64,000 bases of DNA from NCBI GenBank assembly GCA_963837465.1, contig CAWINB010000001.1, positions 629,646-693,645 of the forward strand, in the 5' to 3' direction. The stretch's first letter is position 1. Each line of letters begins with the position of its first letter. Positions 8,117 to 61,457 of the stretch are shown one piece after another. Source of the DNA: Candidatus Doudnabacteria bacterium (GTDB taxonomy: Bacteria > Patescibacteriota > Doudnabacteria > UBA920). The notes beneath the pieces are model-generated. The model saw only the letters and a list, made by a program, of their open reading frames with translations, did not search any database and was not told the DNA's origin. Made by a program: the position numbers and the translations under genes.

Positions 8117-8121
8117 AACTC

Positions 8122-41745: not shown

Positions 41746-43185
41746 GAAGTAGTTTCTAATCAAGACATGGCCCCTATCCGCCAGCGGCCATTTTTTGATG
41801 TTCCTTAAGTTTAATGTTTTTAAATACTGCTGACTTTGCTTCCTGCATAAGTTTTGCCCATCCGTTATGGCTGTGGCCGGTGCTGATGTCATCCAGTTGT
41901 TTTTCCGTCCGTCCTGGGGCAAGGTAGCGTGTCCAATTATCCAGAGTCTTCAGTTTGGCATAGGGAGTTAAGTAAATATCATATTTTTTCTTTTCCTTGC
42001 CCTTATGGTCAACCGTGGTGGTGGCAAAGCCGCAGGGTCTGTGGAAGTTCAGGTAAGGGTTAAAAAACTTCTGGTAAAATTCGTTAATCTCCTGCGCGTA
42101 GGTTTTCGGGATATGAGTGTAGCCCATATACTTTCTGATGACACTGCCGTTCTTGCTTTCCACTAAGGCATTGTCATTGCAGTGCCTGCTTCGTGATTTT
42201 GTCTGTTTAATAACTAACCTTCTAAGAATATCAGCTACCGTGTAATTAATGTTCTCGCTACCGTTGTCAGAGTGGAAGTTAATTACTGTAAAGGGAAACA
42301 TTTGCTGCAACTGTTCAAATATGGGTTTTAAATGCAGCTCGGAAATCGTTTCCACACAGAAGACCATTTCCCATTGGGTGACTTCATCCACCAGGTTTAA
42401 GTGGTAAATACCTTTCTCATACTTGCCCAAAGCCAGCTTACGGTCGCCCTGATGCACGGTATCCACCCGCAGATAGCCCGGAATGCCCATATTGTCGGGT
42501 CTTCTTCTAATACCAATCGGGGTGCTTACTGGATCGGTTATGGTAAAGGTGGTGGAGTGGCTGGTGTAAATTCTTTTAACTCGCAGATTGTAGATATGGG
42601 AAACGGAAATATCTTTTAGTCTTTTAAACCGTTCGTCACCGAATATTTCATATTCAGCCATTAGGATCTGTTTGGTGGCATGGGCATTCATTCGTTGGTG
42701 CAGATTATCGGTTTCAGCCAGCAATAGTATTTCTGCCGGGCCATAAACAGTAACAAACCGGTTTTTCTTGCCCCAATTCGGGGACAAGGCCACTAACCCA
42801 CTTCCTCTCTTGTTGGTAATCAGTCGTTTTAGCTGTCTGCCCGACATGCCGGTCATCCGTTGGATATATTCCTTAATCTGCCCCTTGTCTTTTTTGCCTT
42901 TAAGCCGGACATAGCCAAACTTGTTTAAGACGTTGTTAATCCATTCATATTTCTCCTTTCTGGAAACTGAGGTAAAATTAATTGCTGTATTGACCTTTAG
43001 AAATTCCTTGATTTGAGCTATGCTCGTAACGCTTAAGTCTGTCATATCGATTGTCATCAAGTCAGTGTGGCAGGCTTATGCTCTTTGTACAGCTTCCGGG
43101 CAACCCTCCGGTTTCAGCAATTGGGGTACCGTCCTCCTTTAGAGGCTGTCTCAAAGATAGGGGCCATGTTCCATTGTATAAGACT
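41746..43185 (-). mobile_element. IS element copy 2 (1440 bp), inverted relative to copy 1
   Basis: Nucleotide-identical to 16891-18330 in reverse complement. The flanking sequence diverges immediately outside both ends. Confidence 0.8.
41774..43060 (-). CDS. DDE-type (rve) transposase, identical to 17016..18302
   Basis: The 428 aa protein is identical to the copy-1 transposase. Confidence 0.8.
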   Translation of the reverse strand: MMTIDMTDLSVTSIAQIKEFLKVNTAINFTSVSRKEKYEWINNVLNKFGYVRLKGKKDKGQIKEYIQRMTGMSGRQLKRLITNKRGSGLVALSPNWGKKNRFVTVYGPAEILLLAETDNLHQRMNAHATKQILMAEYEIFGDERFKRLKDISVSHIYNLRVKRIYTSHSTTFTITDPVSTPIGIRRRPDNMGIPGYLRVDTVHQGDRKLALGKYEKGIYHLNLVDEVTQWEMVFCVETISELHLKPIFEQLQQMFPFTVINFHSDNGSENINYTVADILRRLVIKQTKSRSRHCNDNALVESKNGSVIRKYMGYTHIPKTYAQEINEFYQKFFNPYLNFHRPCGFATTTVDHKGKEKKKYDIYLTPYAKLKTLDNWTRYLAPGRTEKQLDDISTGHSHNGWAKLMQEAKSAVFKNIKLKEHQKMAAGG

Positions 43186-45546: not shown

Positions 45547-45632
45547 GCCGAAGTGATGGAATGGCAGACATGCACGGTTCAGGGCCGTGTGACCGCAAGG
45601 TCATGAGGGTTCGACTCCCTCCTTCGGCACCA
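45547..45632 (+). tRNA. tRNA-Leu (anticodon CAG), type II with long variable arm
   Basis: Acceptor gccgaag/cttcggc; anticodon stem cacgg/ccgtg with loop ttCAGgg; variable arm tgaccgcaaggtcat; T-arm gaggg ttcgact ccctc; discriminator A and encoded CCA. Confidence 0.85.
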
Positions 45633-47127
45633 AGATATTACACAAGGGAATTTTTCCAACTTTTTCTAGGGCTGCCTTAAGGGCAGCCCATTGTGTTTGC
45701 GGGCTAAACTGCAACTGACGGTTTTTTAAAAACAGGTTCGAGCCGAAAATTTGTTGGGCAGCCGATTTTTTGGGGTGCAGTTCGGGCGAAAGCGTTATTT
45801 CGCCCAATTTTTCTGCGTCTTTGAGCCATTGCTTGTAGGGTTCGAGCCAAAAATTACTGCCTTGTTCAATTTTGGTCATTTGCTCCTCCAAAGATTTCTT
45901 TTGAGAGACAAGATTATTCTTGTCTGTACGATACTCTTCCTGTTCAATATCCTGATCCAGGTACATGTCTTTGAGTTTTTGGAGTCTCCTATCTATATCT
46001 GTTTTCTTTAACCCCAGATCTTGAACAAGGATCGTCGTGGTCTGGTTTGCTTCCTGGCTATCCTTTTCAGCCATGCTTAATAGCTCCTCAGCCCACTCCT
46101 TAGGCATGATAAAAGTTTTAAGGGTATTAGACAACTGACTGGCTAATTCCCCGTCTCGTATGAAAGGCTGCGAACAGACAGTACGCTTTTTAGTGCAGCG
46201 GTAATAGGTAAAGACCAGTCCGCTTTTCTTTATGTGGGTTTCGCCGGTAACATTGCGGCCGCACTCGCCGCAGCGCAAAAGTCCGGCTAAGGGCTTGCCC
46301 TCGGCTGGTCTCCTGATAGTTTTACCCCGCTGTTTTAAAACTTCTTGCACTTTATCAAAAAGCTGTTTGGAAATTAAAGACTCATGCTTACCCTGGAATA
46401 GTTCGCCGCCGTATCTGAACAGACCGCAATAAAAGGGATTGGAAAGGATATATTTGGCCTGGTCACGCTTAAATAATTTCCCGCCTTTACTGCCTCCCTT
46501 TTGAATTTGTTTGGTCATAATACCCCTTTCAAACAAAAATCCAGAGGTATTTTCAAGTGAACAAAGGCCTTGTGAATATCTCTCAAAAGCTTGTTTGATA
46601 ATTGGGCCTTTGTGTTGGTCAATAACTATAGATTTATTCCGTACATCATTTAAATAACCTAACGGAGCCAGCCCTGGATATTCTCCCCGCCTGGCTTTCT
46701 CCATAAGGCCACGTTTGGTGTTAACGCTTAAGTCCCTGATGTACTGGTTGGCTATGCCAAACTCCACGTTCATAAGCATGACGTTATCGGCAGAGCGGTA
46801 ACTTCTGTCATGGGTTTGGATATGCTGGATAGTGCCCTCTTGCAGTAGCCACTGGATTTGGGCGGCATCTACGGGATTACGGGCTAGCCTGTCCAGCTTC
46901 CAACAGATAATCCCGGTGGCTTCACCTTTCTGAATCCTGCTCGCCATGTCATTAAACACAGGGCGGCCAGGGCACTTAGCAGATTGCTTTTCCACGAATT
47001 CACAAACAACATTTAAGTTCTGCTCCTTGGCTAAGGAACGCAAAACGGCAAGTTGGTCTTCTATTGACCGAACTTGCTTATCTTCTACGTCAGTAGATTT
47101 ACGGACATACAGGAAATAATTTAGCAT
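45601..47127 (-). CDS. Large serine recombinase (resolvase/invertase N-domain plus recombinase domain plus zinc ribbon); its 3' end overlaps tRNA-Leu
   Basis: 508 aa. N-terminal YVRKSTDVEDKQVRSIEDQ contains the catalytic Ser. Also GIICWKLDRLARN, the recombinase domain, and the zinc ribbon CGECGRN...YYRC. The last 11 codons (...VPKEGVEPS*) are encoded by the tRNA-Leu 3' end. Confidence 0.85.
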   Translation of the reverse strand: MLNYFLYVRKSTDVEDKQVRSIEDQLAVLRSLAKEQNLNVVCEFVEKQSAKCPGRPVFNDMASRIQKGEATGIICWKLDRLARNPVDAAQIQWLLQEGTIQHIQTHDRSYRSADNVMLMNVEFGIANQYIRDLSVNTKRGLMEKARRGEYPGLAPLGYLNDVRNKSIVIDQHKGPIIKQAFERYSQGLCSLENTSGFLFERGIMTKQIQKGGSKGGKLFKRDQAKYILSNPFYCGLFRYGGELFQGKHESLISKQLFDKVQEVLKQRGKTIRRPAEGKPLAGLLRCGECGRNVTGETHIKKSGLVFTYYRCTKKRTVCSQPFIRDGELASQLSNTLKTFIMPKEWAEELLSMAEKDSQEANQTTTILVQDLGLKKTDIDRRLQKLKDMYLDQDIEQEEYRTDKNNLVSQKKSLEEQMTKIEQGSNFWLEPYKQWLKDAEKLGEITLSPELHPKKSAAQQIFGSNLFLKNRQLQFSPQTQWAALKAALEKVGKIPLCNILVPKEGVEPS

Positions 47128-47203
47128 AATCGTATAGATTAATAACTCTATATATAGTTATTATATAACATCTGTTATAATAAATGCAAATTCATACAAT
47201 TTT

Positions 47204-47410
47204 ATGATTGACATAGTAATTAAATTTGGCAAACGAGTTAAAGATATACGCCTGAAGAAACATTTATCCCAAGGTAAATTAGCAAAAATATTAGATGTTC
47301 ATCCCAGCTATATTAGCGGTATTGAACGTGGTTTGACGAATATGTCTTTAAAAAATATAGAGAAGATAGCAAAGTCTTTAAATGTTTCGGTAATCGATCT
47401 TCTAAAATAG
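47204..47410 (+). CDS. XRE-family helix-turn-helix transcriptional regulator
   Basis: 68 aa. LSQGKLAKILDVHPSYISGIERG is the canonical HTH_XRE motif. Confidence 0.7.
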   Translation: MIDIVIKFGKRVKDIRLKKHLSQGKLAKILDVHPSYISGIERGLTNMSLKNIEKIAKSLNVSVIDLLK

Positions 47411-47413
47411 TTT

Positions 47414-47980
47414 ATGATAAAGGCAATTATTTTTGATATTACTGGCGTATTATTCCCCGTTCAACCGTGGATAGGAGAGCGTCCATCACATGAAGAATTA
47501 TTAAAAATAAAACAAATTGCTACTGGTATTTATGATAAAGACAAAATGTCAAAAGAATACCTTAAAGAAAAAATCTTCCAAGCTAGCCGCCCACACAATG
47601 AATTAGAGGCTATATATAAAAGCTTAACTTTAATTGATGAGGATGTTTTCAATCTTATAAAAAAACTTTCGGAAAAATACTCTCTTTATTCCATAGCCAA
47701 TGAGGCGGAAAAATGGACAGATATTAGAAAAGATTTATATGGGTTTCAAAAGTACTTTAAAAAACTTTACATTTCAGTTGAAGTCGGAATGAGAAAACCC
47801 GAGGAAAGTATTTACAAATTACTTCTCAGCGAAACAGGACTGCTACCAGAAGAGTGTTTATTTATAGATGATAAAGCAATAAATGTTGAAGCGGCTCAAA
47901 AGCTTGGCTTTCAAGGATTTATATATAAAAATTTTAATAGCCTAAAGGAATATCTTATCAAAAACAATTTACTTGTTTAA
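47414..47980 (+). CDS. HAD-superfamily hydrolase
   Basis: 188 aa. N-terminal IIFDITGVL (the DxD/T motif variant) and C-terminal CLFIDDKAINVEAAQKLG (HAD motif IV). Confidence 0.65.
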   Translation: MIKAIIFDITGVLFPVQPWIGERPSHEELLKIKQIATGIYDKDKMSKEYLKEKIFQASRPHNELEAIYKSLTLIDEDVFNLIKKLSEKYSLYSIANEAEKWTDIRKDLYGFQKYFKKLYISVEVGMRKPEESIYKLLLSETGLLPEECLFIDDKAINVEAAQKLGFQGFIYKNFNSLKEYLIKNNLLV

Positions 47981-48052
47981 GTGTTTTATTGTCAATTGCG
48001 TTTGCGTTCTGCGCCCTGCGTCTCCCCAAAAAATCTTCCCTATCTCCGAACC

Positions 48053-48165
48053 TGTTTTTAAAAAACCGTCAGTTGCAGTTTAGCCCGCAAACACAATGGG
48101 CTGCCCTTAAGGCAGCCCTAGAAAAAGTTGGAAAAATTCCCTTGTGTAATATCTTGGTGAAGCTT
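48053..48165 (+). repeat. Inverted duplicate of the serine recombinase 3' terminal 110 bp (copy B)
   Basis: The reverse complement of 45628-45740 is identical, up to the shared cacca junction. It is annotated in the ORF track as the 71 aa ORF 47989..48204 ending ...KIPLCNILVKLYPDSRSHFIKNS. Confidence 0.8.
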
Positions 48166-48531
48166 TACCCTGACTCTCGATCTCATTTTATCAAAAACAG
48201 CTAACCTTGGCCACCCTAAACCTCCTTGCCCAAGGCTGTTTTTTGATTTAAAATTGAGGTGCCAACTGTATGAACGTCTGTACGAACACCATTCATACAC
48301 CAGAAGCACTAAAATCCTTAATTCCACTACCTCTCACTACTCCAAATATCCCTGACTACTATATATCACCAGATAATCTAACTGAACGACAAAATAGATA
48401 ATAATACTAAAAACAATAACTAAAATACTAATACTTAAAATACTTAAATACTAACTAAATACAAATATACTAAACTAACTTAAAACAAACCAAAAAAACA
48501 AAGTGAACAGAGAGGGGAAAATGGGGGGGGT
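48166..48531. repeat. Left arm of a long inverted repeat (about 370 bp) bounding the 48.2-61.2 kb block
   Basis: The reverse complement of 48166-48531 matches 60790-61174 almost base for base, apart from a few indels including a G8 versus C6 homopolymer. Confidence 0.85.
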
Positions 48532-48534
48532 GAG

Positions 48535-48566
48535 TTTTTTCCGCAAGCTAGAAGCTTGCGGAAAAA
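48535..48566. terminator. Perfect GC-rich hairpin flanked by T6 and A6 (bidirectional terminator-like) at the inner edge of the left repeat
   Basis: ttttttccgcaagct aga agcttgcggaaaaaa. Confidence 0.4.
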
Positions 48567-51336
48567 ATGGGGATGGAAAAAAACATTAAGCCTGTCATTA
48601 AAATTTATGATAGCGCACCAACACATTGTAGCGCAGCCATTAGTTCATCCAAGTTTATCCAATATCAATATTGGATACTTGCTTTGGCTACTGGCACTCA
48701 AAAGTATTCCAAGTTGGGAACGGCTAACTGGATACCTGTTAGGATACTTGGCCATTTTTACTTTGATCCTTGCCAAGTTTACCAATATTAACAGTCATGC
48801 TTTTGAAAAAATGAAGATTAAGCCCAAGGATTTGGAAAAACAACTTTCAGACACTCTATACTTCGAAATCACCATTGCCAAAAACTCCCAAACTACAGCT
48901 TTCCAAGTCCAGCAGAAAATCCTTAAAGCCTTCCACTCCATATATATTGACCCAGTGGAAGGCGCGCATAACTTTGGCTTTTTCTTTTTCTTCCAAAAGC
49001 TCTGGAGAAAGTTGAAGATCAACCGCTCCAAACAAGTTTTCTTTACCATGCAAGTTTGGGCTCAGCACCCATACATCTCTTTTAGGCTCCAAGTGCCAAA
49101 GGTAGAGTTCCAACGTCTGGAGAAAGCCATTTTTAACGCCTATCCTAATGCAGAAGTAGCCACACTAGATAAAAACAAAGCTCTTGAGGAAATTACCAAA
49201 TTTCCCAAGGGCTTTTTAAGTTATGGGGAAACTACAATAGAGGGACAGTTTTACCATAGGGTTAAGACTTTAAAAGATGTATCCAGTGACCCTGTTGATT
49301 CCATCATATCTACCATGGAAGGCCTTAAAAAAGGCCAGTTTATGATCTACAACGTCCTAGTATCTCCGGCTTCCCATTACTTTAACCAGCTAATCCATCA
49401 CCGTATTGAAGACCAGGAACAGCAAGGGGCGGTAAGCCAAGGAGATAAAAAGTTTGCACTACAGAAATGGGGCGCTGGTTCTGAACTGGCTAATGCCACA
49501 AACTCCGCCATGATAGAAAAAATGAAAGCCCCACTTTTCCAGACTATTGTGTCCTACTGGACAGTTGCAGATACAAAAGAGACGGCCGAAGCTAAACTCC
49601 GTAGCATCCAAGGCGTACTGACGGAAATCAACCAAAAAAATATGAACACGCTCAAGCACAATAGGCTGTTTACCAAACAGGTTAGCAAGTTGGAAAAGAA
49701 CGGCCAACTGAAAAATATTATTGACGGCAGGCCAATCTTTAAATTAAAAAGATTTTTCTTCTCCCCATTTGCCAAGTTTAAGAACTATGGGCAAATGCTT
49801 TCTGACAGTGAGCTTTATTCCTTTTGGCATTTACCCAATACTGCCATAAATACAGTATCTTCCATTAGGCTAACTAAGTTTAAAAAGCTCCCTGCTAGTC
49901 AACAACTTAGGGAACATGCTGATAATTTTTTCATTTCCCTTGGCCATGCCAATTTCAGGATGCAGGAAGAAACTCAAGTAGGTATTGCTACTTGGGAAGA
50001 TATGAAAAAACATATCTACATCTTAGGCGGAACAGGTAGCGGAAAATCTGAAACCTTAAAAACCATCCTAAGTAACCTGCTAGAGAAACAGGATGATGAA
50101 AAAACCGCCCTCTTGATAGTTGACCCTAAAAATGATTTCGCTACTGACCTGTTAACTATGATACCGGAGAGTAGAAAGCAAGACGTGGTTTACTTTAATC
50201 CCCAAAGACAAAAACAGAAACCCCTAGCGTTTCCTTTTTTTTCCAAGTTTTCAGGAGACAAGACCGATGAAGAGCGCTTAGAGTTTTTAATTTCCATAAT
50301 GAAACGCTTTGTGCAAATTGATTCCTCCTACTCCTGGGGGCCGGAGCTGGAAAACATTCTTAGGCAATTGTTTGCCACAGCGTTTGTCTTGCCCGAGCAA
50401 TCTCTGTCCGGACTGGATCTATTGCTCCACCAAAAAACTCAAATTCAAAATCTAGTAAGATATTTACCCCCAAGGCTTAAAGCCTTTTGGATGGATTCGA
50501 TTTTAAACAGGACGAATAACGATTTGGCTAAGTATTTAGCCACTACCAACAACAAACTGGGCAAGTTTTTAGACTATCCAGAGTTTATGAATATTGTTGA
50601 CCGCCAAGGCAGTAAAATATCTTTTGAGGATATGATTAACACCGGCAAGATATTTATCGCTAACCTTGGCTCGTGCAGCGAGCAAATGAAAAAATATTAT
50701 TCTGTCTATCTTACTGCTCACATTAGTGAAGCTATTTTTGACCAGGCCAGATTAAGTAGCCAAGACCGCAAACCCTGCGTGTTTGTGGTGGATGAATTCC
50801 AAAGAGTTGCCAGTGATATATTTGAAACCCTGTTTTCCGAGGTTAGGGCTTTTAATACCGCCTTAGTTATCTCTAACCAGTTCATGGGACAGTTAGATAT
50901 TAAAATCCAAAAATCCATAGAATCCAACATTGCCACTAAAATCTTTATGCGAACCCAGTCGGTTGATGACGCCGAGATTGCCGAGAAAATATTAGGCCAG
51001 AAGGTTTTAGTTGAAGACATTATTAACCTACCCACGGGTACGGCTTACATTAAAACCTTAGTTAAGGGTATTCCCCAAGACCCGATGTCTATTAATATCC
51101 AGAAAACCGAACATCCTAAAGATACTGCCAAAGACACCGAGGATTATTTTATCAGTATGGCTATGGACAAGTACGGTACGCCAATTGATGACATCGTAAG
51201 AGAACGCACCGCCGTAAACTCTCTCTATTATTCAGCCGGTGATAAAGAAAAAGAATTTCACGAAACTATGAGCAAGGGAAAAACTTTAACCATCCCGGAA
51301 GAAACACCAGAGGAAAAGACTAGTAATAATTTTTGA
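48556..51336 (+). CDS. Membrane-anchored P-loop ATPase of the FtsK/HerA/TraG-VirD4 (coupling-protein-like) superfamily
   Basis: 926 aa. The true start is probably downstream of the hairpin, around 48607. N-terminal TM helices (IGYLLWLLAL...LLGYLAIFTLILA). A C-terminal NTPase with Walker A ILGGTGSGKSETL, ALLIVDPKNDF, Walker B CVFVVDEFQ and ISNQ. The same architecture is seen in conjugative coupling and DNA-pumping ATPases. Confidence 0.5.
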   Translation: MRKKWGWKKTLSLSLKFMIAHQHIVAQPLVHPSLSNINIGYLLWLLALKSIPSWERLTGYLLGYLAIFTLILAKFTNINSHAFEKMKIKPKDLEKQLSDTLYFEITIAKNSQTTAFQVQQKILKAFHSIYIDPVEGAHNFGFFFFFQKLWRKLKINRSKQVFFTMQVWAQHPYISFRLQVPKVEFQRLEKAIFNAYPNAEVATLDKNKALEEITKFPKGFLSYGETTIEGQFYHRVKTLKDVSSDPVDSIISTMEGLKKGQFMIYNVLVSPASHYFNQLIHHRIEDQEQQGAVSQGDKKFALQKWGAGSELANATNSAMIEKMKAPLFQTIVSYWTVADTKETAEAKLRSIQGVLTEINQKNMNTLKHNRLFTKQVSKLEKNGQLKNIIDGRPIFKLKRFFFSPFAKFKNYGQMLSDSELYSFWHLPNTAINTVSSIRLTKFKKLPASQQLREHADNFFISLGHANFRMQEETQVGIATWEDMKKHIYILGGTGSGKSETLKTILSNLLEKQDDEKTALLIVDPKNDFATDLLTMIPESRKQDVVYFNPQRQKQKPLAFPFFSKFSGDKTDEERLEFLISIMKRFVQIDSSYSWGPELENILRQLFATAFVLPEQSLSGLDLLLHQKTQIQNLVRYLPPRLKAFWMDSILNRTNNDLAKYLATTNNKLGKFLDYPEFMNIVDRQGSKISFEDMINTGKIFIANLGSCSEQMKKYYSVYLTAHISEAIFDQARLSSQDRKPCVFVVDEFQRVASDIFETLFSEVRAFNTALVISNQFMGQLDIKIQKSIESNIATKIFMRTQSVDDAEIAEKILGQKVLVEDIINLPTGTAYIKTLVKGIPQDPMSINIQKTEHPKDTAKDTEDYFISMAMDKYGTPIDDIVRERTAVNSLYYSAGDKEKEFHETMSKGKTLTIPEETPEEKTSNNF

Positions 51337-51347
51337 TTTAAAAATCT

Positions 51348-52244
51348 ATGAGTTTCAACAACCCAGGTGTTAAATTAACCCCAAGAGTCGCAGGCTCTAA
51401 CTATCCCCTAAAGCTTAATCAGTCCGCTTTGGACATCTTAAGCTTAGTGTTTGAATTTAAACTTGCCGCCGCCTGGCACGTCTCGAGGTTTTTAACCCAA
51501 GAAAACCAAAACAAGTATGTCTATCTCAAACTCCGGCGGATGTGGCAGGCGGGCTATTTGGAAAGTTTTAAAGTCCATTCAGAATCCCTCCTTGGCTTTC
51601 CCGTCTACTACATGCTTTCCAAAAAAGGCTTAAGCATTTTAGCGGAGCACGGTCTTTATTCCCCCGGTCAACTCTCTAGTTATCCCTCCCCCAAAACTTT
51701 GTTTTCCCCACACCTGTTTAAACACGAAAGCCAAGTGGTGGAATTGGCCAGTTTGGAAGCCCAAAACCAGACTAAGGATTTAGATATCAAATTTAAAGGA
51801 GAACTAAGTTCACAAGGACAAAACATCCTAAGCGACAAGACTGTTGAAGCCTTAACTCCTGACTACACCGTTACATATATATCCGGCCAAACAGAACATA
51901 AAGTTTTTACCGAGTTTGAACGAACAGCAAAATCTAAAATGGCTCAAACTCGGAAGGTTGAAAGATACTTAAACTTTTTGGACTTTGAGCAGAGGCAGAC
52001 TGTAACCTTAAGGATAATTTTTCAGACATCTGGTATGGAGCAATCATTTTGGCTTAATGCTTTAACTAACCTGTCTAGGCTTTCCAGCTTAAGGATTGTT
52101 ACCACTAATCTTTCGTTACTAGACACCTCTAACCAGTTCCTTAAACCAATTTATAGTTCAGAGCAAACAGTAAAAATGGGAAGATTTGACGGGCGACTGA
52201 CTGTTAATACATCCGAGCGGATAAGGCTGTTTGAGTTTTTATGA
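51348..52244 (+). CDS. Hypothetical protein, possibly a replication-relaxation/plasmid replication-type wHTH protein
   Basis: 298 aa. An N-terminal wHTH-like segment (LDILSLVFEFKLAAAWHVSRFL...YVYLKLRRMWQAGYL) and a central H..HES.VVEL. The resemblance is weak and the call is pattern-based only. Confidence 0.3.
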   Translation: MSFNNPGVKLTPRVAGSNYPLKLNQSALDILSLVFEFKLAAAWHVSRFLTQENQNKYVYLKLRRMWQAGYLESFKVHSESLLGFPVYYMLSKKGLSILAEHGLYSPGQLSSYPSPKTLFSPHLFKHESQVVELASLEAQNQTKDLDIKFKGELSSQGQNILSDKTVEALTPDYTVTYISGQTEHKVFTEFERTAKSKMAQTRKVERYLNFLDFEQRQTVTLRIIFQTSGMEQSFWLNALTNLSRLSSLRIVTTNLSLLDTSNQFLKPIYSSEQTVKMGRFDGRLTVNTSERIRLFEFL

Positions 52245-52326
52245 GCTCAAAATTTTTGCCAGTAAATTTATTCATAGCCTGTAATGGACAAAAGAATGTA
52301 GTTCAACTAATTTTGCAGAAGTAATT

Positions 52327-53337
52327 TTATATACCCCTCTCTCCTAAAATATAAAATGTATTTAAAACTTCTTCTTTAATTTTGTGTGTATTGCCGTGTT
52401 TCAACATTCCTAAATAGGACTGCATTGTTTCGTTTGTGGGATGACCTTTCAAACGATTAAACATTCTTTTGCGGCTAGTTGTTCTCAAGACCTTATGTTT
52501 TGGGAAAACTATCCAACCTAAAAAATCAACTCCCGAAGATAATGTTTTTATAAAAACCTTATCTGGATGTAAGGCAAGTTTAAGTTCTGTATTTAAAAAA
52601 TCAGATATTTTTGGCAATAGGCCAAGTAAACAATTTTTACTTTGAGACAAAAAAACAAAATCATCGGCGTAACGGATATAATGCCGGATTTTGAGCTTGT
52701 GTTTTACAAACTGGTCAAACTCGTTCATATAAATATTACAAAATAACTGTGAGGTTAAATTGCCCAGCGGGAGTCCTTTTTTAGGTTCAACAAAATTAAA
52801 ACTATTTATTACATTTTGTAAAAGCCAAAGTACATTTTTGTCTGGAATATAACTTGTTATAATTCCCTGTAATTTAAAATGATCAATACTAGCAAAAAAC
52901 TTTCGTATATCACACTTAAGCACCCAAGCCGTTTTTGTATGATTTTTACTTACCTGTAAAGCAAAACTTTCAAACCTCTTAATTGCTTTATGCGTTCCTT
53001 TACAAACACGGCACGAATAGGAATCAGCGATAAAAGTTCTGTCAAAAAAAGGATACAGCTTTCGGTAAATAGCATGGTGTAAAACCCTATCCCTTACTTG
53101 GGCTTTATGAATATTACGCGGCTTGGGGTCTGTGATATTAAACGCTTTGTAATCCCCATGAATGTAACTAAAATTGGCAAGATCGCTCTGAAGCTGTAAA
53201 ATGTTATCAGCTAGACTCAAGCTAAACTCCTGAACATCTTTCTTATTTTTCTTACCAAATACAAACTCTTGCCACGCGGCAAATAAATTTTCGCGTGAAA
53301 TTACTTCCTCGTAGCTGGTTTTCAATTGAATTTTCAT
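52327..53337 (-). CDS. Diversity-generating retroelement (DGR) reverse transcriptase
   Basis: 336 aa. RT motifs include ...ITDPKPRNIHKAQVRDRVLHHAI (motifs 1-2), LKCDIRKFFASIDH (motif 3), and GLPLGNLTSQLFCNIYMNEFD. The [I/L]GxxxSQ variant of motif 4 is the DGR-RT hallmark, replacing the QGxxxSP of group II introns. YIRYADDFVFL has the YADD catalytic box. LALHPDK...GVDFLGW follows. The size (about 330-340 aa) and the lack of maturase or endonuclease domains fit a DGR RT. Confidence 0.8.
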   Translation of the reverse strand: MKIQLKTSYEEVISRENLFAAWQEFVFGKKNKKDVQEFSLSLADNILQLQSDLANFSYIHGDYKAFNITDPKPRNIHKAQVRDRVLHHAIYRKLYPFFDRTFIADSYSCRVCKGTHKAIKRFESFALQVSKNHTKTAWVLKCDIRKFFASIDHFKLQGIITSYIPDKNVLWLLQNVINSFNFVEPKKGLPLGNLTSQLFCNIYMNEFDQFVKHKLKIRHYIRYADDFVFLSQSKNCLLGLLPKISDFLNTELKLALHPDKVFIKTLSSGVDFLGWIVFPKHKVLRTTSRKRMFNRLKGHPTNETMQSYLGMLKHGNTHKIKEEVLNTFYILGERGI

Positions 53338-53396
53338 AATTAAGACATAAAAATGGCATTTAATTCACCCCCCCCCCCAACGCGAATTTTGGCAAT

Positions 53397-53744
53397 TTGC
53401 CAGTTTTACAAAAAATAACAAACGGTTACAAGCTTTGGCATAATTATTTACCACATCTTCCAAAACTGGTTAAGTATTCTTTGGCTGAAAAAATAAATAC
53501 TTTGTTTACAGATATTATTGAACTGATACTAACAGCCGGTTTTGCCGCTAAAGAGCATAAATCTGTTTTAGTGCAAAAGGCTAGCATTAAACTGGATACA
53601 CTCAAATATTTTTTACAATTAGCTTGGGAACTTAAAGCACTAGACAATAAACAGTTTTCTGCTATTTCCACGCCTTTAGTTGAAGTCGGTAAAATGCTTG
53701 GAGGATGGCAAAAGCAATTATTAAAAGAAACTCCTCCCAGATAG
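53397..53744 (+). CDS. avd: Avd-like accessory variability determinant (four-helix-bundle, 23S rRNA intervening-sequence protein family)
   Basis: 115 aa. Basic and helical, with the pattern LAEKINTLFTDIIELILTA...LDTLKYFLQLAWELKAL...EVGKMLGGWQK typical of the Avd/IVS family. It is divergently adjacent to the RT. Confidence 0.65.
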   Translation: MPVLQKITNGYKLWHNYLPHLPKLVKYSLAEKINTLFTDIIELILTAGFAAKEHKSVLVQKASIKLDTLKYFLQLAWELKALDNKQFSAISTPLVEVGKMLGGWQKQLLKETPPR

Positions 53745-53762
53745 GAGGAGTAAGAAGACAGT

Positions 53763-53892
53763 AGCGGGGAACAACGAACCGATCGTTGCGATTGTAGTTG
53801 TTGTCGACCCAATTGAAGTTGAGCACCCAACGCTGCGACTTCTCGTTCCAATTGAAGTAGGCAACGTTGCGGTTACGGTTGTCATCGAGCAA
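53763..53892 (-). repeat. DGR template repeat (TR)
   Basis: 130 bp matching 54245-54374 (VR). Every TR/VR mismatch falls where the TR has T on the plus strand, which is A on the minus-strand coding strand. The ORF-track entry 53662..53922 (-) is a spurious translation of the TR. Confidence 0.8.
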
Positions 53893-54224
53893 AATTATGC
53901 AAAACATCTTCTTATCCACCACCCCTTGAATACTCTTGGGGTTGTATTTTATTTGGGGCTATTAGCCCGCCAATACTTTGCACCGAGTATCTTCTTTTTA
54001 GATTTGCTAAAAAATACTCTACCGGAAACCGTGGCCGCCGATACTCTGATTTTTTAGCAATTCGCGATGTGGTTACCTGAAGCCATGACCGCAGGCACAA
54101 ATCCCATCTGTTTGGAGTATATCAAATTTTTCAATTTTTGAAAAAAAACGCCCGCATTTTGACCGAAGTCAAAATGCGGGCAATGCGAAGCGCCAAGGAA
54201 CCAAAACCCAAAAGAGCAAAGGGT

Positions 54225-54884
54225 TCAAGCGGCCAAGGGCAACTCGCGGGGAACAACGAACCGATCGCGGCGATTGTAGTAGCGGTCGACCCAAGGGAAG
54301 GAGAGCACCCAACGCCGCGACCGCTCGTGCCAATTGAAGTAGGCAACGCGGCGGCTACGGCTGACATCGAGCACCTCGGTAAGCGGCATAATAAAATAAT
54401 GCTTGCCGCGCGACTCGACCGGGAAGATTTCTTTCCCTTCCTCCTGCGCCTTCAACAGCGCAAAAGCGTAGCCGAGACTACCAATCGCTTTCATCTCGAT
54501 GGACCGCTGCAGCATGACTTCACCGCTGATGTAGTCGCCGTCACCATCCCGCAAAGGGCAGATGTAGTCGACATTGGCTAACTCGACGTCACCTTCCAGA
54601 CGGTCTTTACGGACGCCATCCTTGGTGACGTAAACCGAATAGCCGTTTGGCATCAGGCCGGTATCTTCAGCCCGAACGGGGGTGACGATGCCGCGAACCT
54701 TGTTGGCGTATTTCCTGATTACGGCTGCGATGTCGTCTTCCAAGCCCGTGCCTGGAAAACCCAATGCGGCTTGAAAGTGTTCTTCGGTAGTGCCTGACTT
54801 GCGAGCCGAGGCACGGAGACGTTCTTCGAGTTTACCTACTTGATTGTTGGATGGGGTAGATGGTGTGGTGGTCATCAGCGTCAT
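54225..54884 (-). CDS. DGR target (variable) protein; C-terminal variable region (VR) encoded at 54245-54374
   Basis: 219 aa. The C-terminal ...RRVAYFNWHERSRRWVLSFPWVDRYYNRRDRFVVPRE aligns to the TR-encoded NRNVAYFNWNEKSQRWVLNFNWVDNNYNRNDRFVVPRY. Asn (AAY) codons in the TR correspond to varied residues in the VR. The tail resembles the ...W...FRVV C-type-lectin-fold VR scaffold. Confidence 0.75.
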   Translation of the reverse strand: MTLMTTTPSTPSNNQVGKLEERLRASARKSGTTEEHFQAALGFPGTGLEDDIAAVIRKYANKVRGIVTPVRAEDTGLMPNGYSVYVTKDGVRKDRLEGDVELANVDYICPLRDGDGDYISGEVMLQRSIEMKAIGSLGYAFALLKAQEEGKEIFPVESRGKHYFIMPLTEVLDVSRSRRVAYFNWHERSRRWVLSFPWVDRYYNRRDRFVVPRELPLAA

Positions 54885-55163
54885 CCTCCTTATTCAATTT
54901 AGATTCAGTTCGCCGAAGCGAATCTGGGGTCAGCTTTCGCCTTAGCTTTAAATCCAAAAACTGTATTTTTTGGACAAATAGATAAGGCTAAAATTAACTT
55001 TTTATTGTACACTATTTTATTACTTATGTCAAGTTTAGCTTAATTGAGGGAAAATTTCCCTAAGTTAGCTCTTGGAGCTTTCCAATTGGCTAGTTCTTCT
55101 CGGTCTTGTTCTCCTGGGTTCATAAATTTATAGTTTCTGCCTAAGAGGCATTAGAGTTTAATT

Positions 55164-55658
55164 TTAGCGTTCGGCTAAATTTAAAGTAGCACCAAGAGTA
55201 TTAAGTTTTTGTTTTTCAACAGGACTTAATACTTGGTTAATGGCTTTATATAGGTCTGCTTCTAGTATAGTGCGTAGTGCAAGTTTTTCTCCATCCGTTC
55301 CAGGACTGTTTTTAATAAATTCTTGAAAATTTCTTGAATTCCTATTAATCTCTTCCACTGCATGTTGTAGATTATCATTATTTGTAGATGGACTATTGAG
55401 CTCGGTTCTAATTTGTTCCAATAAGCCGTTCAAGCTAAAGTGTATGAAATTGTCTACATCTTTTTTAAAATTTTCGGGAGAGGATGCCTGCACTTCATGT
55501 TGGCTTTTTTCTTGTTGTAATTTAACATCATGCTCGTGTGTTTGATATCCCACAATACCTAAAGCTGCAACACCACCTAACGCGGCGGCCTTACCAAGCT
55601 TGCCCGCACTTTTTTTTATATCTGGCTCCTCCGAAAAACCTCTATTTTCTCTTCCCAT
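55164..55658 (-). CDS. Hypothetical protein with N-terminal hydrophobic/Gly-Ala segment
   Basis: 164 aa, with no recognisable motif. Confidence 0.35.
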   Translation of the reverse strand: MGRENRGFSEEPDIKKSAGKLGKAAALGGVAALGIVGYQTHEHDVKLQQEKSQHEVQASSPENFKKDVDNFIHFSLNGLLEQIRTELNSPSTNNDNLQHAVEEINRNSRNFQEFIKNSPGTDGEKLALRTILEADLYKAINQVLSPVEKQKLNTLGATLNLAER

Positions 55659-56017
55659 AAAAAAATTTTATTTCTCCCAAAATGGGGATTATATTTTTAA
55701 ACAACGGCTTGATTAAGCCATCTCCGTTTCAACCACTGTGCACTGGAAGTGCACAGACTGCTCGCCGACTGGAAGTCGAGAACAGCGGAGGAATTATCTA
55801 TTAATTTTTACTGAAGTGACCGCCTGAAGGCGTGGGAACTCACCGCCCCAAATGGAGGCCTTAGATTAATTATATACCAATGGTAATTTAAAGCAATTCA
55901 AATAAGCACAATGTTGTCAGTTTCGTGGGCATGCCATATACCATCTACAGGCGGCTAAATTAACCGACTATAGATGACGGCGCAGAAAACAAAGTTCTCT
56001 GCGCCTACTCCAGACCC

Positions 56018-56251
56018 TCATCTTATCATGTGTCGAAATTCCCACAAATGCAACAAGAGGTCACCGGCAACGATAGCCCAAAAGAAGGCCTTGCGAGCTT
56101 TCCTTTTTGGGGATTCGTTCTGCACTCGTTTGAACATCTCTCGCGCGAACTGATAAGCTTCCTGTTCCCTTGAACGGTAGTCAGCTAATTCTGCCTCCGT
56201 CGCCTCTCTTAATTCATACTGCCTGAACCCGACTTGGACTGGTATTTTCAT
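56018..56251 (-). CDS. Hypothetical small protein
   Basis: 77 aa ORF in a coding-dense region of the block. Confidence 0.3.
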   Translation of the reverse strand: MKIPVQVGFRQYELREATEAELADYRSREQEAYQFAREMFKRVQNESPKRKARKAFFWAIVAGDLLLHLWEFRHMIR

Positions 56252-56347
56252 AACTCCTCCTTCTCCCTACCTCAAAAAATAAAATTTATTTGTTAAGGTA
56301 GAGGTGCAAGAGTCGGTTAAGAATCTTGCACATCCGCATACATGGCC

Positions 56348-56701
56348 CTATACGGCGGGCGAGAACATCTTAGCAACGGCCAGGGCTATCTTGATGCCTT
56401 CTTGAAGGCTGTAGCCCCAGTGGTCATTAACCCATCCTCCGCCGAACCGGGGGGTAAACCGGTCGTAGAACATGGAATACAACTGCATCTCTTGGCTGCC
56501 CTTTCTCAACTTGACTGTAGCACCGCCCCCGTGTCGAGGCCTGACATCACATTCAACTACCAGTCCCGCGGCCTCAAACTCGGGCACTTTTTCCGCAATC
56601 ATCTCCAGGTGCTTGCGAAAGGCTCGTACTGCTTGGCCGCCGCAGTCGTCATCGTACCTAAGCTCACTAGCTGCTTTTAGAAGTTGTTCTTGTGCGTTCA
56701 T
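56348..56701 (-). CDS. Hypothetical protein
   Basis: 117 aa ORF. Overlapping ORFs lie on the other strand, so this is the likelier coding strand from local context. The call is weak. Confidence 0.3.
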   Translation of the reverse strand: MNAQEQLLKAASELRYDDDCGGQAVRAFRKHLEMIAEKVPEFEAAGLVVECDVRPRHGGGATVKLRKGSQEMQLYSMFYDRFTPRFGGGWVNDHWGYSLQEGIKIALAVAKMFSPAV

Positions 56702-56903
56702 AAATCCCCCTTAAGTGGTCCGCTATTGCAAACAGTTGCTTCCCATTTGATTGGGACTTGCTGGCAGTTATCCAAATTACTGCCTAGCATTCGCTGTTTA
56801 CACGGAATGATTTTAGGGTTTGAAACCCTACTTTAATAAACAAATATTATTTACTAAGGTAGGGGCGGAAGATCAACAAAGAGCGTTGTTCTTCCGCGCC
56901 AGT

Positions 56904-57431
56904 TCACTTGCCGAACAGAAAGACGTTCACAAACTGGTCGAAGTGATTTTGTTCTCTTCGATAGCTCCGTTCGTCTTTTTTGACCGTGCTGATTTGGTAA
57001 GGGATGTCTTTGCGCACTTCTTGACGGAAGTCATCTGCGTTGCCGGATTCGATCAACTGGCAGGAGTCCCATTTTTTGAACACATAGCCTTCCAGCTCGC
57101 CACGGCAACGTTGTATGGACTGGAACTCGCCTGTATTTGAGACGGACCAGAAAGTCAGTTCGGAATAGAGAGAGTTGAAAAAAATTACCACGACCCCCTC
57201 ACGGATTATTTTGTCACCAACGGCAACTTTCGGCTCGAAGTCCTTCACGTAAAGAATACTGGCCTTTGAACCGCTGTCCTTGCCGGTGTCCGCGTTCTTG
57301 AAGTAGATATCGACGCTCTGCTTATCGCCAAGCAGCTTTTGCAAATTTTGCGTAAAGCTACTCCGTTCCGGCGCCTGGGCCATTGCGGCGATGGTGGTGA
57401 AAACGAAAATACTAAGCAAGCTCTTCATTTT
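56904..57431 (-). CDS. Secreted hypothetical protein (signal peptide MKSLLSIFVFTTIAAMAQA)
   Basis: The ORF track extends to 57521. The internal Met followed by a signal peptide is the probable start. Confidence 0.4.
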   Translation of the reverse strand, partial: KMKSLLSIFVFTTIAAMAQAPERSSFTQNLQKLLGDKQSVDIYFKNADTGKDSGSKASILYVKDFEPKVAVGDKIIREGVVVIFFNSLYSELTFWSVSNTGEFQSIQRCRGELEGYVFKKWDSCQLIESGNADDFRQEVRKDIPYQISTVKKDERSYRREQNHFDQFVNVFLFGK

Positions 57432-57612
57432 ATTGCCCTCCTTGGGCTTTGGGGGATAAAGTTGCCTCCGGTTCCGAATCCCTGGGTTCGGGGAGGTGCT
57501 ACAATCTATTGTAACTAGCAATTATCACATAAAATTATATTACTGTCAATAATAAGAACTTATTAAATATCATAAAAAACCTATTAATAAAGCTCAAAAT
57601 GGTATTATAGAA

Positions 57613-58404
57613 TTGTTTGTCCAAATACTGGACAAAAATATAATTAGGGTGTATAATGGTTATATGGATTTAAAACAGGTTTTATCAAACATTGGGTTAG
57701 ATGAAAAAGAAACAGCCACTTATATGGCTGTTTTGGAGTTAGGGACAAGCAGTGTTTATTCTATTGCTAAAAAGGCAGAGTTAAAAAGGCCAACAGTTTA
57801 CAGACTATTAGATCAATTAGGTCAAAAAGGTTTAGTAACTATTGTGCCCAGAGTAAAAAAACAGCTTTACACAGCCAATTCGCCGGAACATATAGTTAGC
57901 GAACTACAGCGCAAAGCTGAGGTGATGAAAAATTACTTGCCACAATTTTTGGCCATTTTTAATTCCAAAAAAGACAAGCCCCAAGTGCAGTTATTTGAGG
58001 GCAAAGAGGCAGTAAGGCAAGTTTATCAAAAATGCATTTCTCTTAATAAAGTTTGGTTTTTTGGCAGCGTCAGCGAAATGTTTGATACGGAAGAATTTAA
58101 GCTGTTTTTAAAAAGGGTTAAGGCTGGTGAGTTAAAAGCCCGTGATTTATTTGTTAGCTCAGAAAAAGACCTAGGGTTCGCGCGATCCCAAAAGCCCCAG
58201 GCTAATTATGAAATAAAATTTTTGCCAGAACAAACAGAAAATCCCATAACAGACTTTGCGGTGTTTGGCGATAACTTAGTTTTTTTCTCTTTTCGTCCTA
58301 CAAAATTTGCTGTATTAATCACCAGCAAAGAAGTCGCTGGCACTTTCCGATTGCTCTATGAATCAGCTTGGAGTGGTGCAAAAAATGTCGGCCATATGAA
58401 ATAA
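57613..58404 (+). CDS. TrmB-family winged-helix transcriptional regulator
   Basis: 263 aa; the probable start is MDLKQVL at 57664. LELGTSSVYSIAKKAELKRPTVYRLLDQLGQKGLV is the TrmB N-terminal wHTH. Confidence 0.6.
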   Translation: MFVQILDKNIIRVYNGYMDLKQVLSNIGLDEKETATYMAVLELGTSSVYSIAKKAELKRPTVYRLLDQLGQKGLVTIVPRVKKQLYTANSPEHIVSELQRKAEVMKNYLPQFLAIFNSKKDKPQVQLFEGKEAVRQVYQKCISLNKVWFFGSVSEMFDTEEFKLFLKRVKAGELKARDLFVSSEKDLGFARSQKPQANYEIKFLPEQTENPITDFAVFGDNLVFFSFRPTKFAVLITSKEVAGTFRLLYESAWSGAKNVGHMK

Positions 58405-58564
58405 AACGACTAGCTTAATGTTATGGAACTAATTGAGAAGGTAGAGCAAACTTAAAGTTTGTTAAAATCGTGACCAATTATCTAACGCATGGGGTAGGGA
58501 TTGCTGGTTTGTTGTCCCCTCCCCTTTTATACCTATATGTTACTAAAACAGATTAGGCATAAAT

Positions 58565-59488
58565 TTAATCTCCTGTATTTCTTAAATGCAAAGGCACTTC
58601 CTGCTCTTTTTTATGTCTTTCTCCGTAAGCCGTTGTTGCTGGTTTTAAATCACCTAAAGCTGTTAGCTCGTGGGCTATATTGCCAGACCAAAGCGCTCCG
58701 CTTATATGAGGCTTGGTGGTCTTGCTATAAGAAGATGCTAAATCACTAACCTGTCTTAGCGTCCTGTTCATCACCGATTTATAAGCTTCTTTTAATTCTT
58801 TGGTTCGGGAAAGTTTGGTAATAAATTTACCAAATTCTTCCGCATTAAAAGGCTGCGCAGAAGCGGTTAACTCTTGGAATTTCAAAATTGATTGGAGCCA
58901 CGGTTTTTTATAAGCCCCCTGCTGGTCTTCGTAAATTAAACCTTTTAGCATTTCATATCCTTGCCTCTCCAACCATGCAATCGCTAAAATCATATTCGGC
59001 TCAATACCAACTTCCTTTTCCTGCATCATTTTTTCCAATTTCCCATTTACAATATCCATAGCAAGCCGCAAGGCTTCGGCTGGCACCAAATTTTCGCCGT
59101 TTGCAACCTCAGCCAAAGCCTTATTAAGTTCAGCGTCTGACGTAGCTGGCGGAGCCTCCTCAACCATCTTTGTATTTTCTTCAAGTCTTTTTAATATATC
59201 AATAACTTTTTCTTGTTTTTGTTCCCCATCCACCAAAGTCTTTACCTCTTTATCATAATTGGCTAAATCGTATATTAGAGCTTGTCTTTCTGCGGGAGCC
59301 AAATAGCCTTCCGTCTTAGGTAACAATGTAGGGAGTTCGCCCTTGTCGTGGGTTTCATTGTATTTAATCATTGCCTGGACAACTTCCCTAACCAATGGCC
59401 TTTGGTCGTGGACAAAATCACGAAAAGCTCCGAATGTGCCAGCCAAAGCCAAAGCATTCTTTTCTATTTTGCTCCAGTTTGGCAACAT
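58565..59488 (-). CDS. Hypothetical protein
   Basis: 307 aa. Overlaps the upstream ORF by 71 bp, so a fusion or frameshift is possible. Confidence 0.35.
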   Translation of the reverse strand: MLPNWSKIEKNALALAGTFGAFRDFVHDQRPLVREVVQAMIKYNETHDKGELPTLLPKTEGYLAPAERQALIYDLANYDKEVKTLVDGEQKQEKVIDILKRLEENTKMVEEAPPATSDAELNKALAEVANGENLVPAEALRLAMDIVNGKLEKMMQEKEVGIEPNMILAIAWLERQGYEMLKGLIYEDQQGAYKKPWLQSILKFQELTASAQPFNAEEFGKFITKLSRTKELKEAYKSVMNRTLRQVSDLASSYSKTTKPHISGALWSGNIAHELTALGDLKPATTAYGERHKKEQEVPLHLRNTGD

Positions 59489-60560: not shown

Positions 60561-60789
60561 ATTATTTGCATTAAATAATTTTATAGCTTAATAATAACAA
60601 AAAAACCCCTCAATTACGAGCGGGGCGGTTTGCAGTAGGGAGATTGTAGCCCAAATGTGCGCGGATTGGGCGGGTGGGGCAAGCACATTTTCTTCAATTA
60701 ATTCTCTTGTAATGCACCCCTGTTTTTGAGCCAATCCACAACCCTGCCTTTTTCTGATTTCTGCCTGTTTTTTGTCCCTGTTTCTTGTT

Positions 60790-61445: not shown

Positions 61446-61457
61446 AGTCGTTTAGGG

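Follow-up and report, generated by a model that had tools for sequence, protein, structure and literature searches.

Introduction

Serine integrases are not known to target tRNA genes (Hudson et al., 2015; PMC4383910), and the mobilizable elements that depend on serine recombinases insert within protein-coding genes (reviewed in PMC5704250). In this work we have analysed a stretch of 64,000 nucleotides from a Candidatus Doudnabacteria bacterium (GenBank assembly GCA_963837465.1, contig CAWINB010000001.1, positions 629,646 to 693,645), referred to hereafter as the window, with window positions used as coordinates throughout. A gene for a large serine recombinase (LSR) reads here into the 3′ end of a tRNA-Leu(CAG) gene, and its sequence context makes it very probable that this region is the left attachment site (attL) of an integrative, probably mobilizable element of 15,969 bp, inserted into the tRNA 3′ end by its own LSR. 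Our literature search retrieved no paper on tRNA-targeting serine integrases in bacteria of the Candidate Phyla Radiation (CPR), nor on an internal mirror image of the element's own attachment site (attP), and large island databases may hold uncommented cases.

The phage-type LSRs (phiC31, Bxb1, Listeria A118/LI Int, TP901-1) are like the enzyme described here in combining resolvase, recombinase and zinc-ribbon domains, and in having partner sites that share 3–6 nt and no long direct repeats. Unlike them, the element in the window appears to target a tRNA 3′ end rather than a protein-coding or intergenic site, its predicted attP lies inside its own coding end, so that the protein tail would change on integration, and it carries a second, mirror-image attP. 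Its host range, too, is different (CPR bacteria), and we identified no directionality factor for the element.

The tRNA islands of tyrosine integrases (P4-like islands, many integrative conjugative and integrative mobilizable elements (IMEs), and the Islander class) have more of its architecture: insertion at a tRNA 3′ end with the tRNA kept functional, an integrase gene beside the tRNA, tandem accretion at the same tRNA, and accessory cargo. The differences lie in the enzyme family and its chemistry, and in the length of identity, 3–6 nt here versus the usual tRNA fragment of 15–50 nt. In its sequence organisation the element resembles the tRNA-targeting genomic islands, which until now have been defined by their tyrosine integrases: the tRNA is intact, a copy of its 3′ end is displaced and the site is empty in a relative, with a duplicated segment of only 5 nt. 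The tyrosine integrase that defines the Islander class is absent, the sole recombinase of the island being of the serine type. Fusellovirus integrases of the SSV1 type have their attachment site within the int coding sequence, so that integration alters the gene; SSV1 Int, however, is a tyrosine recombinase whose gene is split in two, whereas here only the last ~14 codons would be exchanged and the open reading frame (ORF) stays open.

Two further groups share the geometry of the locus. Both Hin/Gin/Cin and the yeast 2-micron plasmid (Flp/FRT) have a recombinase gene or unique segment between inverted repeats that hold the crossover site, and the 2-micron circle is also divided by two inverted sites into two unique segments, with repeats kept identical. 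In the systems studied here, by contrast, there is no flipped isomer in 47 loci, the enzyme is a large integrase-type serine recombinase instead of a small invertase with enhancer and Fis (Hin/Gin/Cin) or a tyrosine recombinase (2-micron), and the paired sites of the integrated element would be attL and attP, not two identical sites. A small invertase would have ~190 aa, a C-terminal helix-turn-helix (HTH) and both orientations; the LSR has 508 aa and is found in one orientation in all 47 loci. Finally, the serine-recombinase elements of Firmicutes (Tn4451 TnpX, Tn5397 TndX, streptococcal IMEs) are likewise small, with one LSR, very short direct repeats and sometimes mobilization genes (PMC5704250), but they insert in protein-coding genes or with low specificity, and neither tRNA targeting nor an internal mirror site has been reported for them.

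Anatomy of the recombinase locus

The features on which the argument rests are given below, where R is the arm at the LSR 3′ end, X the partner P arm, M the recombinase module and C the cargo module. Four junctions (J1 to J4) share the core CACCA.

45547–45632 (+): intact tRNA-Leu(CAG) found by ARAGORN; its 3′ end is the putative B arm of attL
45601–47127 (−): LSR gene, 508 aa (Pfam, PDB, translation)
45628–45632 (+): J1, predicted attL core CACCA (tRNA nt 72–76), joining the tRNA 5′ part, core and R
45628–45740: arm R, core and predicted P′ arm of attP inside the LSR coding end; one arm of a perfect inverted repeat
45669–45689 (+): G+C hairpin in the LSR coding end (codes QWAALKAAL), terminator-like on the tRNA strand, 37 nt past the CCA
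47204–47410 (+): XRE-type HTH regulator, divergent from the LSR gene (Pfam HTH_3)
47414–47980 (+): HAD-family hydrolase, accessory gene of module M (Pfam Hydrolase, HAD_2)
47981–48046: spacer with a degenerate continuation of the LSR 3′ copy (LPKKSSLSP) and a ~40-nt motif
48047–48159: arm R′, inverted copy of R, 100% complementary to it
48155–48159 (inverted, TGGTG): J2, joining R′, core and X; a complete putative attP in mirror orientation
48160–48528: arm X (inverted), predicted P arm of attP; encodes an alternative tail, KLYPDSRSHFIKNS and stop
60795–61166: arm X′, inverted repeat of X, right end of the cargo
61167–61171 (+): J3, core CACCA of a tandem-type junction (X′, core, R_B), apparently between tandem elements
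61172–61445 (−): R_B, 274-nt 3′ fragment of a second recombinase gene, 73–84% identity to the LSR 3′ end
61451–61596: X″, partial, diverged X arm of a remnant element (146 nt; direct repeats, profile match)
61597–61601 (+): J4, core CACCA of the predicted right attachment site (attR) and right end of the island, joining X″, core and gaatagaac...
61602–61650 (+): predicted native 3′ flank of the tRNA (B′ arm), with a hairpin at 61624–61648

The LSR gene and the tRNA gene overlap over 45601–45632, and translation bears out the initial annotation in that the last 11 codons of the LSR (PKEGVEPS and the stop, after NILV) are read antisense to the T-arm and the acceptor strand of the tRNA. The tRNA itself scores 47.8 bits against Rfam with permissive filters, although it is not listed in gathering mode with default filters. 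On its sequence, the 508-aa protein is a bona fide large serine recombinase of the integrase type, with the Pfam domains Resolvase, Recombinase and Zn_ribbon_recom. The resolvase catalytic domain (PF00239) covers residues 5–149 (E=3.9e-19), and the structures 3guv and 3g13 align with residues 3–153, including the motif YVRKST, which is invariant in our LSR alignment. In the C-terminal part PF07508 matches residues 172–267 and PF13408 residues 279–332; the A118 integrase structures 4kis and 6dnw match residues 217–312; and C286, C289, C311 and C318 are invariant, together with 13 other listed positions of that stretch. Catalytic, recombinase and zinc-ribbon domains are thus all present, as are att sites with a short core.

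The exact inverted repeat that had been noticed at first is real, and its outer end is the cacca of the tRNA, as proposed. Its arms measure 113 nt, are 100% complementary and stand 2306 nt apart; the second arm lies at 48047–48159, a shift of 6 nt from the 48053–48165 given before. Different sequence does follow this second copy, where the reading frame runs on as ...NILVKLYPDSRSHFIKNS and stop, and the XRE and HAD genes do sit between the arms. The X arm contains a conserved P-arm motif (CTATAC..GCTCGAACCTATTTT), and R′ and X together (48047–48528) have the make-up of a complete mirror-image attP inside the element, between recombinase module and cargo. The view of the inverted copy as an att-site junction is therefore retained in that a whole attP with its core is found there, and corrected in that it is an internal mirror image, not an island boundary. 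In the same way, the proposed composition of attP, the recombinase 3′ end (P′ arm) plus the ~370-bp X region (P arm), agrees with our analysis.

The P arm also holds a T-loop-like TCGAACC, whose spacing from the core exceeds by 4 nt that of the real T-loop on the tRNA side. LI Int reportedly has an offset of the zinc-ribbon motif between attP and attB, which the 4-nt offset may resemble. We considered X as a decayed tRNA fragment and rejected this, since no complementary bases flank the motif (by eye).

The hairpin at 45669–45689 is mirrored at 48098–48118 and at 61206–61230, and paired changes preserve its stem both in the R_B fragment and in a related locus (L001, see below). In many other members of the family the G+C palindrome is a different one (CGCGCGCGAAGCGCGCG, encoding HAREARG), located farther into the LSR coding end. 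As for the spacer, its ~40-nt G+C-rich motif (TGCGTTCTGCGCCCTGCGTC...) at 47997–48035 adjoins the inner end of R′ and is 95% identical to positions 7661–7699 of another locus (L002), despite recombinases that are only 68% identical; the L002 copy of R′ is cut short and adjoins holA.

Right end and extent of the island

Past the cargo, X′ mirrors X, with 317 nt and 65 nt at 93–97% identity without gaps, or 97.4% over 383 nt when gaps are allowed. Alignment of the junctions had been suggested at 45628, 48160 and 61170; CACCA is indeed common to them, but the one at 61170 turns out to be a tandem-type junction, and the true attR is placed at 61597–61601. By its sequence the segment between them (61172–61596) is a 425-bp remnant of an older tandem element, whose R_B reading frame ends in ...ILVKLYPDSRSHFIKNS and stop inside X′, that is, in the same X-encoded tail. 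The remnant of R_B and X″ implies repeated insertion at the same tRNA, and tandem insertion beside R_B would mean that the enzyme tolerates an unrelated, or P′-type, right half-site, with an attL-like site being used. The hairpin past attR (61624–61648) probably represents the native terminator or flank of the tRNA.

With attR at J4 the island would span 45633–61601, and thus 15,969 bp, in three parts: module M (LSR, XRE, HAD), bracketed by the perfect inverted R arms; cargo module C, bracketed by the inverted X arms; and the 425-bp remnant. Its G+C content is ~0.40, compared with 0.44–0.53 in the flanks. The predicted junction strings (slash at the junction) are ...CTTCGGCACCA/GAATAGAAC... 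for the chromosomal site (attB) and ...GTAAAGCTTCACCA/AGATATTACAC... for attP, the latter running into the full LSR gene.

Evidence for insertion and for more than one module state

A metagenome scan with the tRNA 3′ end gave 63 loci, nearly all from unrelated bacteria that share this tRNA end, and only two of them (L136 and L138) were syntenic with the window. One of these, the metagenome contig L136, carries an identical tRNA-Leu(CAG) and no island: upstream is a homologue of the solute-binding-protein gene (71–75% nucleotide identity), and an RNase J gene (81.5%) starts ~590 bp downstream of the tRNA. This is the uninterrupted locus that the initial annotation had hoped to see in relatives, and it upholds the tRNA-Leu 3′ end as the chromosomal attachment site. 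Exact-protein look-ups with the solute-binding protein and the LSR of the window matched no record.

A second line of evidence comes from close relatives of the module. Contig L001 (from an assembly with k=141) is colinear with the window from 48955 to 45602 at 93% identity and holds the same 113-nt perfect repeat, but its LSR, 98% identical to that of the window, reads into a tRNA-Leu(TAG). P0121, a protein of the same cluster, corresponds to the L001 allele and ends in the tail KLYPDSRSHFIKNS. Its contig (L149), which stems from another sample, matches L001 at 100% identity along 2475 nt, covering part of R′, HAD, XRE, LSR and R, but past R it continues into X and not into a tRNA. One and the same module is therefore found at both an attL-type and an attP-type junction, and the latter fits an excised circle. 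A recombinase–tRNA overlap that is merely ancestral and fixed is not what these loci display, given the empty site in L136, the 98%-identical LSR in tRNA-Leu(TAG) and the L149 module joined to X.

Two other contigs deserve mention. In L147 a recombinase module (4267–7180) has X-core-R on both sides, as for an excised circle or a tandem array, and with only 73% identity across 194 nt these two X-core-R copies depart from the concerted evolution described below. A Logan unitig (L150, run ERR10755945) is 100% identical to window positions 45803–48076 and ends 30 nt into R′.

Related loci in CPR bacteria

Species-representative genomes searched with the LSR alignment yielded at least 565 relatives, from which we fetched 80 related loci. 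All 80 come from metagenome-assembled genomes of Patescibacteria/CPR type. No relatives were found among the IMG/VR viral contigs, and the reading as a prophage was dropped for this reason. Where the 3′ end is complete, the LSR ORF extends in most loci into a tRNA on the opposite strand, and the tRNAs targeted are very diverse, with five Leu isoacceptors plus Lys, Glu, Arg, Thr, Gln, Asn, Ile, Gly, Ser, Val, Tyr and Cys. Tails that are antisense to a tRNA (e.g., ...GIEPTT...) end at least 73 of 120 homologous proteins, and X-type tails (xLYxxxRTxF) another 10 by regular expression, with ~3 more by eye. An XRE homologue occupies the equivalent divergent position in ~28 related loci.

The inverted copy of the LSR 3′ end is present in 47 loci, the window included, at 0.1–9 kb upstream of the LSR gene. 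It stops at the exact attL nucleotide, and in 46 of the 47 it is followed by the conserved P-arm motif, TGGNN-xxx-CTATAC-x7-GCTCGAACCTATTTT. All 47 have the same orientation, in which the LSR reads into the tRNA and the short copy abuts X. Among loci with at least 5 kb of upstream context ~80% keep the mirror copy, across LSRs that are only ~50% identical. The attR junction (X arm beside non-element flank) was recognised in nine other loci as well. Taken together, the aligned loci have as their canonical layout, by sequence, tRNA - core - R/LSR...M...R′ - core′ - X (inverted)...C...X′ - core - flank.

The position of the crossover had been put at or near ca/cc(a), and our data, in keeping with this, place it within caCCA. 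A three-way comparison of attL, internal copy and attR in eight other elements gave the cores TCACCA, TCAC, CTC, CAC (three loci), GTACC and GAGC. The minimal core across the family is 3 nt, tRNA positions 72-73-74 (last acceptor base, discriminator and C74; C-A-C here), and with this common denominator a 2-nt crossover would fall at 72/73 or 73/74, i.e., the CA or AC of ggCACCA in the window. In L057 and L060 the tRNA as integrated is not followed by CCA (CAA in L057 and CCC in L060, read from the junction strings), and identity between the att sites is only 3 nt. In L072 the inverted copy (7897–8063) includes 20 nt of the tRNA-Thr arm past the core, forming an inverted partial attL; the X arm lies 137 bp farther on and the X and X′ arms are only 80% identical.

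Within R and R′, ~115–165 nt from the core, a ~15-nt sequence (CCTCCAAAAAATC, coding PSKKSSLQK) is repeated in tandem (e.g., L007 11346–11385; window 48020–48046). The repeat is conserved at the nucleotide level across LSRs that are only ~50% identical, also in the non-coding R′, where an insertion of ~10 nt, about one helical turn, sets it off from the arm. It may be a protein-binding site, judging from this conservation.

Concerted evolution of the mirror copy

In most loci the two R arms are the same or nearly so, and between loci they are not. Over the 100 nt beside the core, R and R′ have no mismatch in 25 of the 47 loci and at most two in 37; between loci the median is 63 mismatches in these 100 positions. 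Between the window and L001 there are nine differences in R and all nine are mirrored in R′, with the adjoining 400 nt of the LSR body 100% identical. The X arms behave similarly: X and X′ are 100% identical over 148–344 nt in six loci and 98.7% in L069, as compared to the 97.4% of the window.

The tract of R/R′ identity ends at a conserved insertion of ~10 nt in R′ (TTTGAATTTT-like, between the codons for ...IFG and SN...), beyond which a ~40-nt 'PSKKSSLQKIFG' box is still recognisable. The insertion and the further homology show the copy to be old and, over its full length, incapable of coding; a coding constraint on R′ was discarded as an explanation because the insertion breaks the frame in most R′ copies. 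A tract homogenised between two heterologies is the signature of gene conversion, and on this pattern the copies appear to be kept identical by recombination or gene conversion.

Cargo genes and neighbouring features

The cargo encodes functions that would suit a mobilizable element, together with a retroelement:

48556–51336 (+): coupling-protein-like ATPase (Pfam DUF87/HerA, TrwB_AAD_bind, TraG-D_C)
51348–52244 (+): Replic_Relax protein (Pfam Replic_Relax)
52327–54884 (−): diversity-generating retroelement
52327–53337 (−): its reverse transcriptase (Pfam RVT_1)
53397–53744 (+): its bAvd gene, on the strand opposite to the reverse transcriptase (Pfam bAvd)
53764–53891: its template repeat
54246–54373: its variable repeat, at the 3′ end of the target ORF 54225–54884 (−)

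A TrmB regulator (Pfam) is also encoded, and several cargo ORFs are without a Pfam match. No mating-pore genes were recognised with Pfam among the cargo ORFs, several of which, as said, have no match, and minimal members of the family carry no transfer genes at all. Coupling-protein homologues are only 24–28% identical across loci and point either way relative to the mirror site. All 18 mismatches between template and variable repeat fall at adenines of the template, and the sequence features of a complete diversity-generating retroelement (reverse transcriptase, Avd and the repeat pair) are all found. A related element (L148) has a reverse transcriptase, bAvd and target gene beside its recombinase too.

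Outside the island, 2.5 kb upstream of the tRNA, a 428-aa ORF (41774–43060, −) has a weak rve match (24.4 bits against a Pfam cut-off of 32.6) and may be a transposase remnant, rve being the DDE integrase core. Farther away, at 7676–8561, there is a tRNA-Ile(GAT)/tRNA-Ala(TGC) pair typical of the ribosomal spacer; no rRNA was reported in the whole window by Rfam at the gathering threshold.

Proposed mechanism and alternative explanations

We propose that attP straddles the end of the LSR gene, with the last coding nucleotides as P′ arm and the conserved X as P arm, and that the LSR would recombine this site (X-core-R) with the tRNA 3′ end, crossing over within tRNA nt 72–74. In the unintegrated form X would supply the last 14 codons of the LSR and its stop, and integration would exchange this tail for 11 codons read from the tRNA antisense, leaving the tRNA intact. 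The hairpin at 45669–45689 may then take over from the displaced tRNA terminator. The length and sequence of the tail vary freely across the family, which suggests that it is probably dispensable. An excised circle would carry two inverted attPs parting M from C, in a geometry like that of the 2-micron plasmid. We think it likely that the mirror attP is a functional cis-acting site that the LSR binds or recombines, and any single role for it is at most a tentative proposal; our best guess is a cis site bound or recombined by the LSR that gives the excised circle its two mirror attPs.

What is observed comprises the anatomy of the locus, a relative whose site is empty, the pattern across the family, concerted evolution of the arms and two junction types for one module; several points weigh against this interpretation of it. 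That the LSR recombines these sites is something that we infer from sequence patterns, and so are the precise dinucleotide of crossover and the role of the mirror copy. The empty site of L136 belongs to a related genus (flanks of 71–82% nucleotide identity) and not to the same species, and its sequence past the CCA differs from the B′ flank in the window. A canonical LSR requires both B and B′ half-sites, yet the B′ flanks are unrelated between hosts, and the attL-like site implied by tandem insertion next to R_B is not used by classical LSRs. The contigs with attP-type junctions (L149 and L147) could be tandem arrays or flipped modules rather than excised circles, a flipped or tandem state being possible for L149 because its left end stops inside R′. 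As to the mirror attP, it lies anywhere between 118 bp and 9 kb from the LSR start, which weakens simple autoregulation by the mirror site, and an autoregulatory site just upstream of the LSR promoter was set aside on these grounds. The uniform orientation in 47 of 47 loci likewise argues against a freely reversible switch or an equal use of both attPs.

Among other explanations of the inverted copy, we have considered that the attP region underwent a single inverted duplication long ago, of which the copy would be a neutral relic, carried along with the family and kept similar by no more than ordinary RecA-dependent gene conversion, and regard this as rather unlikely. A single origin is indicated by the shared derived insertion at the same codon, followed by the ~40-nt box; the bounding of the identity tract by two heterologies is what conversion predicts, and the distance to the LSR gene is not fixed. 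Useless inverted repeats, on the other hand, are usually lost, while this one is retained in ~80% of the loci with sufficient upstream context and across LSRs ~50% identical; the copy is always complete through core and P arm and always inverted; the X/X′ arms of 148–344 nt are perfect too; and the non-coding box beside R′ is conserved at the nucleotide level.

Somewhat less probable, in our opinion, is an invertible-segment switch in which the recombinase, or homologous recombination by the host, flips the 2.3-kb segment between the R arms, toggling the LSR between the tRNA-read tail and a native tail with terminator in X (cf. Hin, yeast 2-micron). Perfect inverted repeats, ending at the crossover core, lie on both sides of the LSR gene, R′ and X amount to a complete spare 3′ end with tail codons and stop, the arms evolve in concert, X-type tails occur in at least 10–13 of the 120 homologues, and the left flank of L149 leaves room for a flipped state. 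A neutral flip, however, would yield both states, and all 47 loci are in one; site-specific exchange at the core would swap the arms without homogenising them; and most loci have the ~10-nt insertion in R′ at ~110 nt from the core. LSRs such as phiC31 or Bxb1 are, moreover, not known to recombine attL with attP.

We give little credit to a role of the mirror repeats in a single-stranded stage, in which the circular transferred strand would fold after conjugation so that X′-core-R pairs with R′-core-X. The two modules would then loop out from a stem that serves as double-stranded attP or as a priming hairpin, and heteroduplex repair in the stem would account for the identity of the arms. Folded single-stranded attachment sites are known from CTX phage and from integron attC sites, the cargo does encode a coupling-protein-like ATPase and a Replic_Relax protein, and with both R and X mirrored ~260–500 nt of the attP region would pair. 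But the minimal family members have no genes for such transfer, serine recombinases cut all four strands, so that by our reasoning a stem recombining with attB would leave hairpin-capped chromosome ends, and the single-stranded form itself is hypothetical.

An assembly artefact that duplicated the recombinase 3′ end by chimerism or fold-back can practically be discarded: many related contigs do start within 50–300 nt of the inverted copy, where assemblers struggle, and the Logan unitig stops 30 nt into R′, but the 113-nt repeat is shorter than the k of 141 in the independent assembly of L001 (93% identical), which spans it with unique flanks on both sides, it is found in MEGAHIT, SPAdes and long-read assemblies including the closed genome OY970382.1, the closed long-read genome L038 has the same 113-nt perfect repeat, and homologous inverted copies occur in 46 other loci, with arms that match within loci and differ between loci and with the conserved X motif always at the outer flank.

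Significance

The element inserted at tRNA-Leu(CAG) has practical consequences for the annotation of CPR genomes, where LSR ORFs bear spurious tails derived from tRNAs (GIEPTT... and the like), and island finders based on tRNAs that need tyrosine integrases or long repeats will miss such islands. The relatives, at least 565 in species-representative genomes, point to a large tRNA-targeting serine family, in bacteria whose mobile elements are poorly known, and the target class is new for the serine-integrase enzyme family. LSRs 98% identical in different tRNAs, and a core that tracks the discriminator, suggest a recognition logic that is natural and easily retargeted, which is of interest for integrase engineering.

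The mirror attP, homogenised and fixed in orientation, poses a testable question on the control of directionality or stability. We would only speculate, and with considerable doubt, that the CPR recombinases are a distinct class of serine integrases that reads the universal tRNA 3′ end (T-arm, acceptor and discriminator) and crosses over at the discriminator, with the mirror attP as a functional third site. If this were true, the third site could govern directionality or stability with no need of a classical directionality factor, or else allow a flip or integration via either face, and in either case serine integrases would be regulated in a way that has not yet been described.

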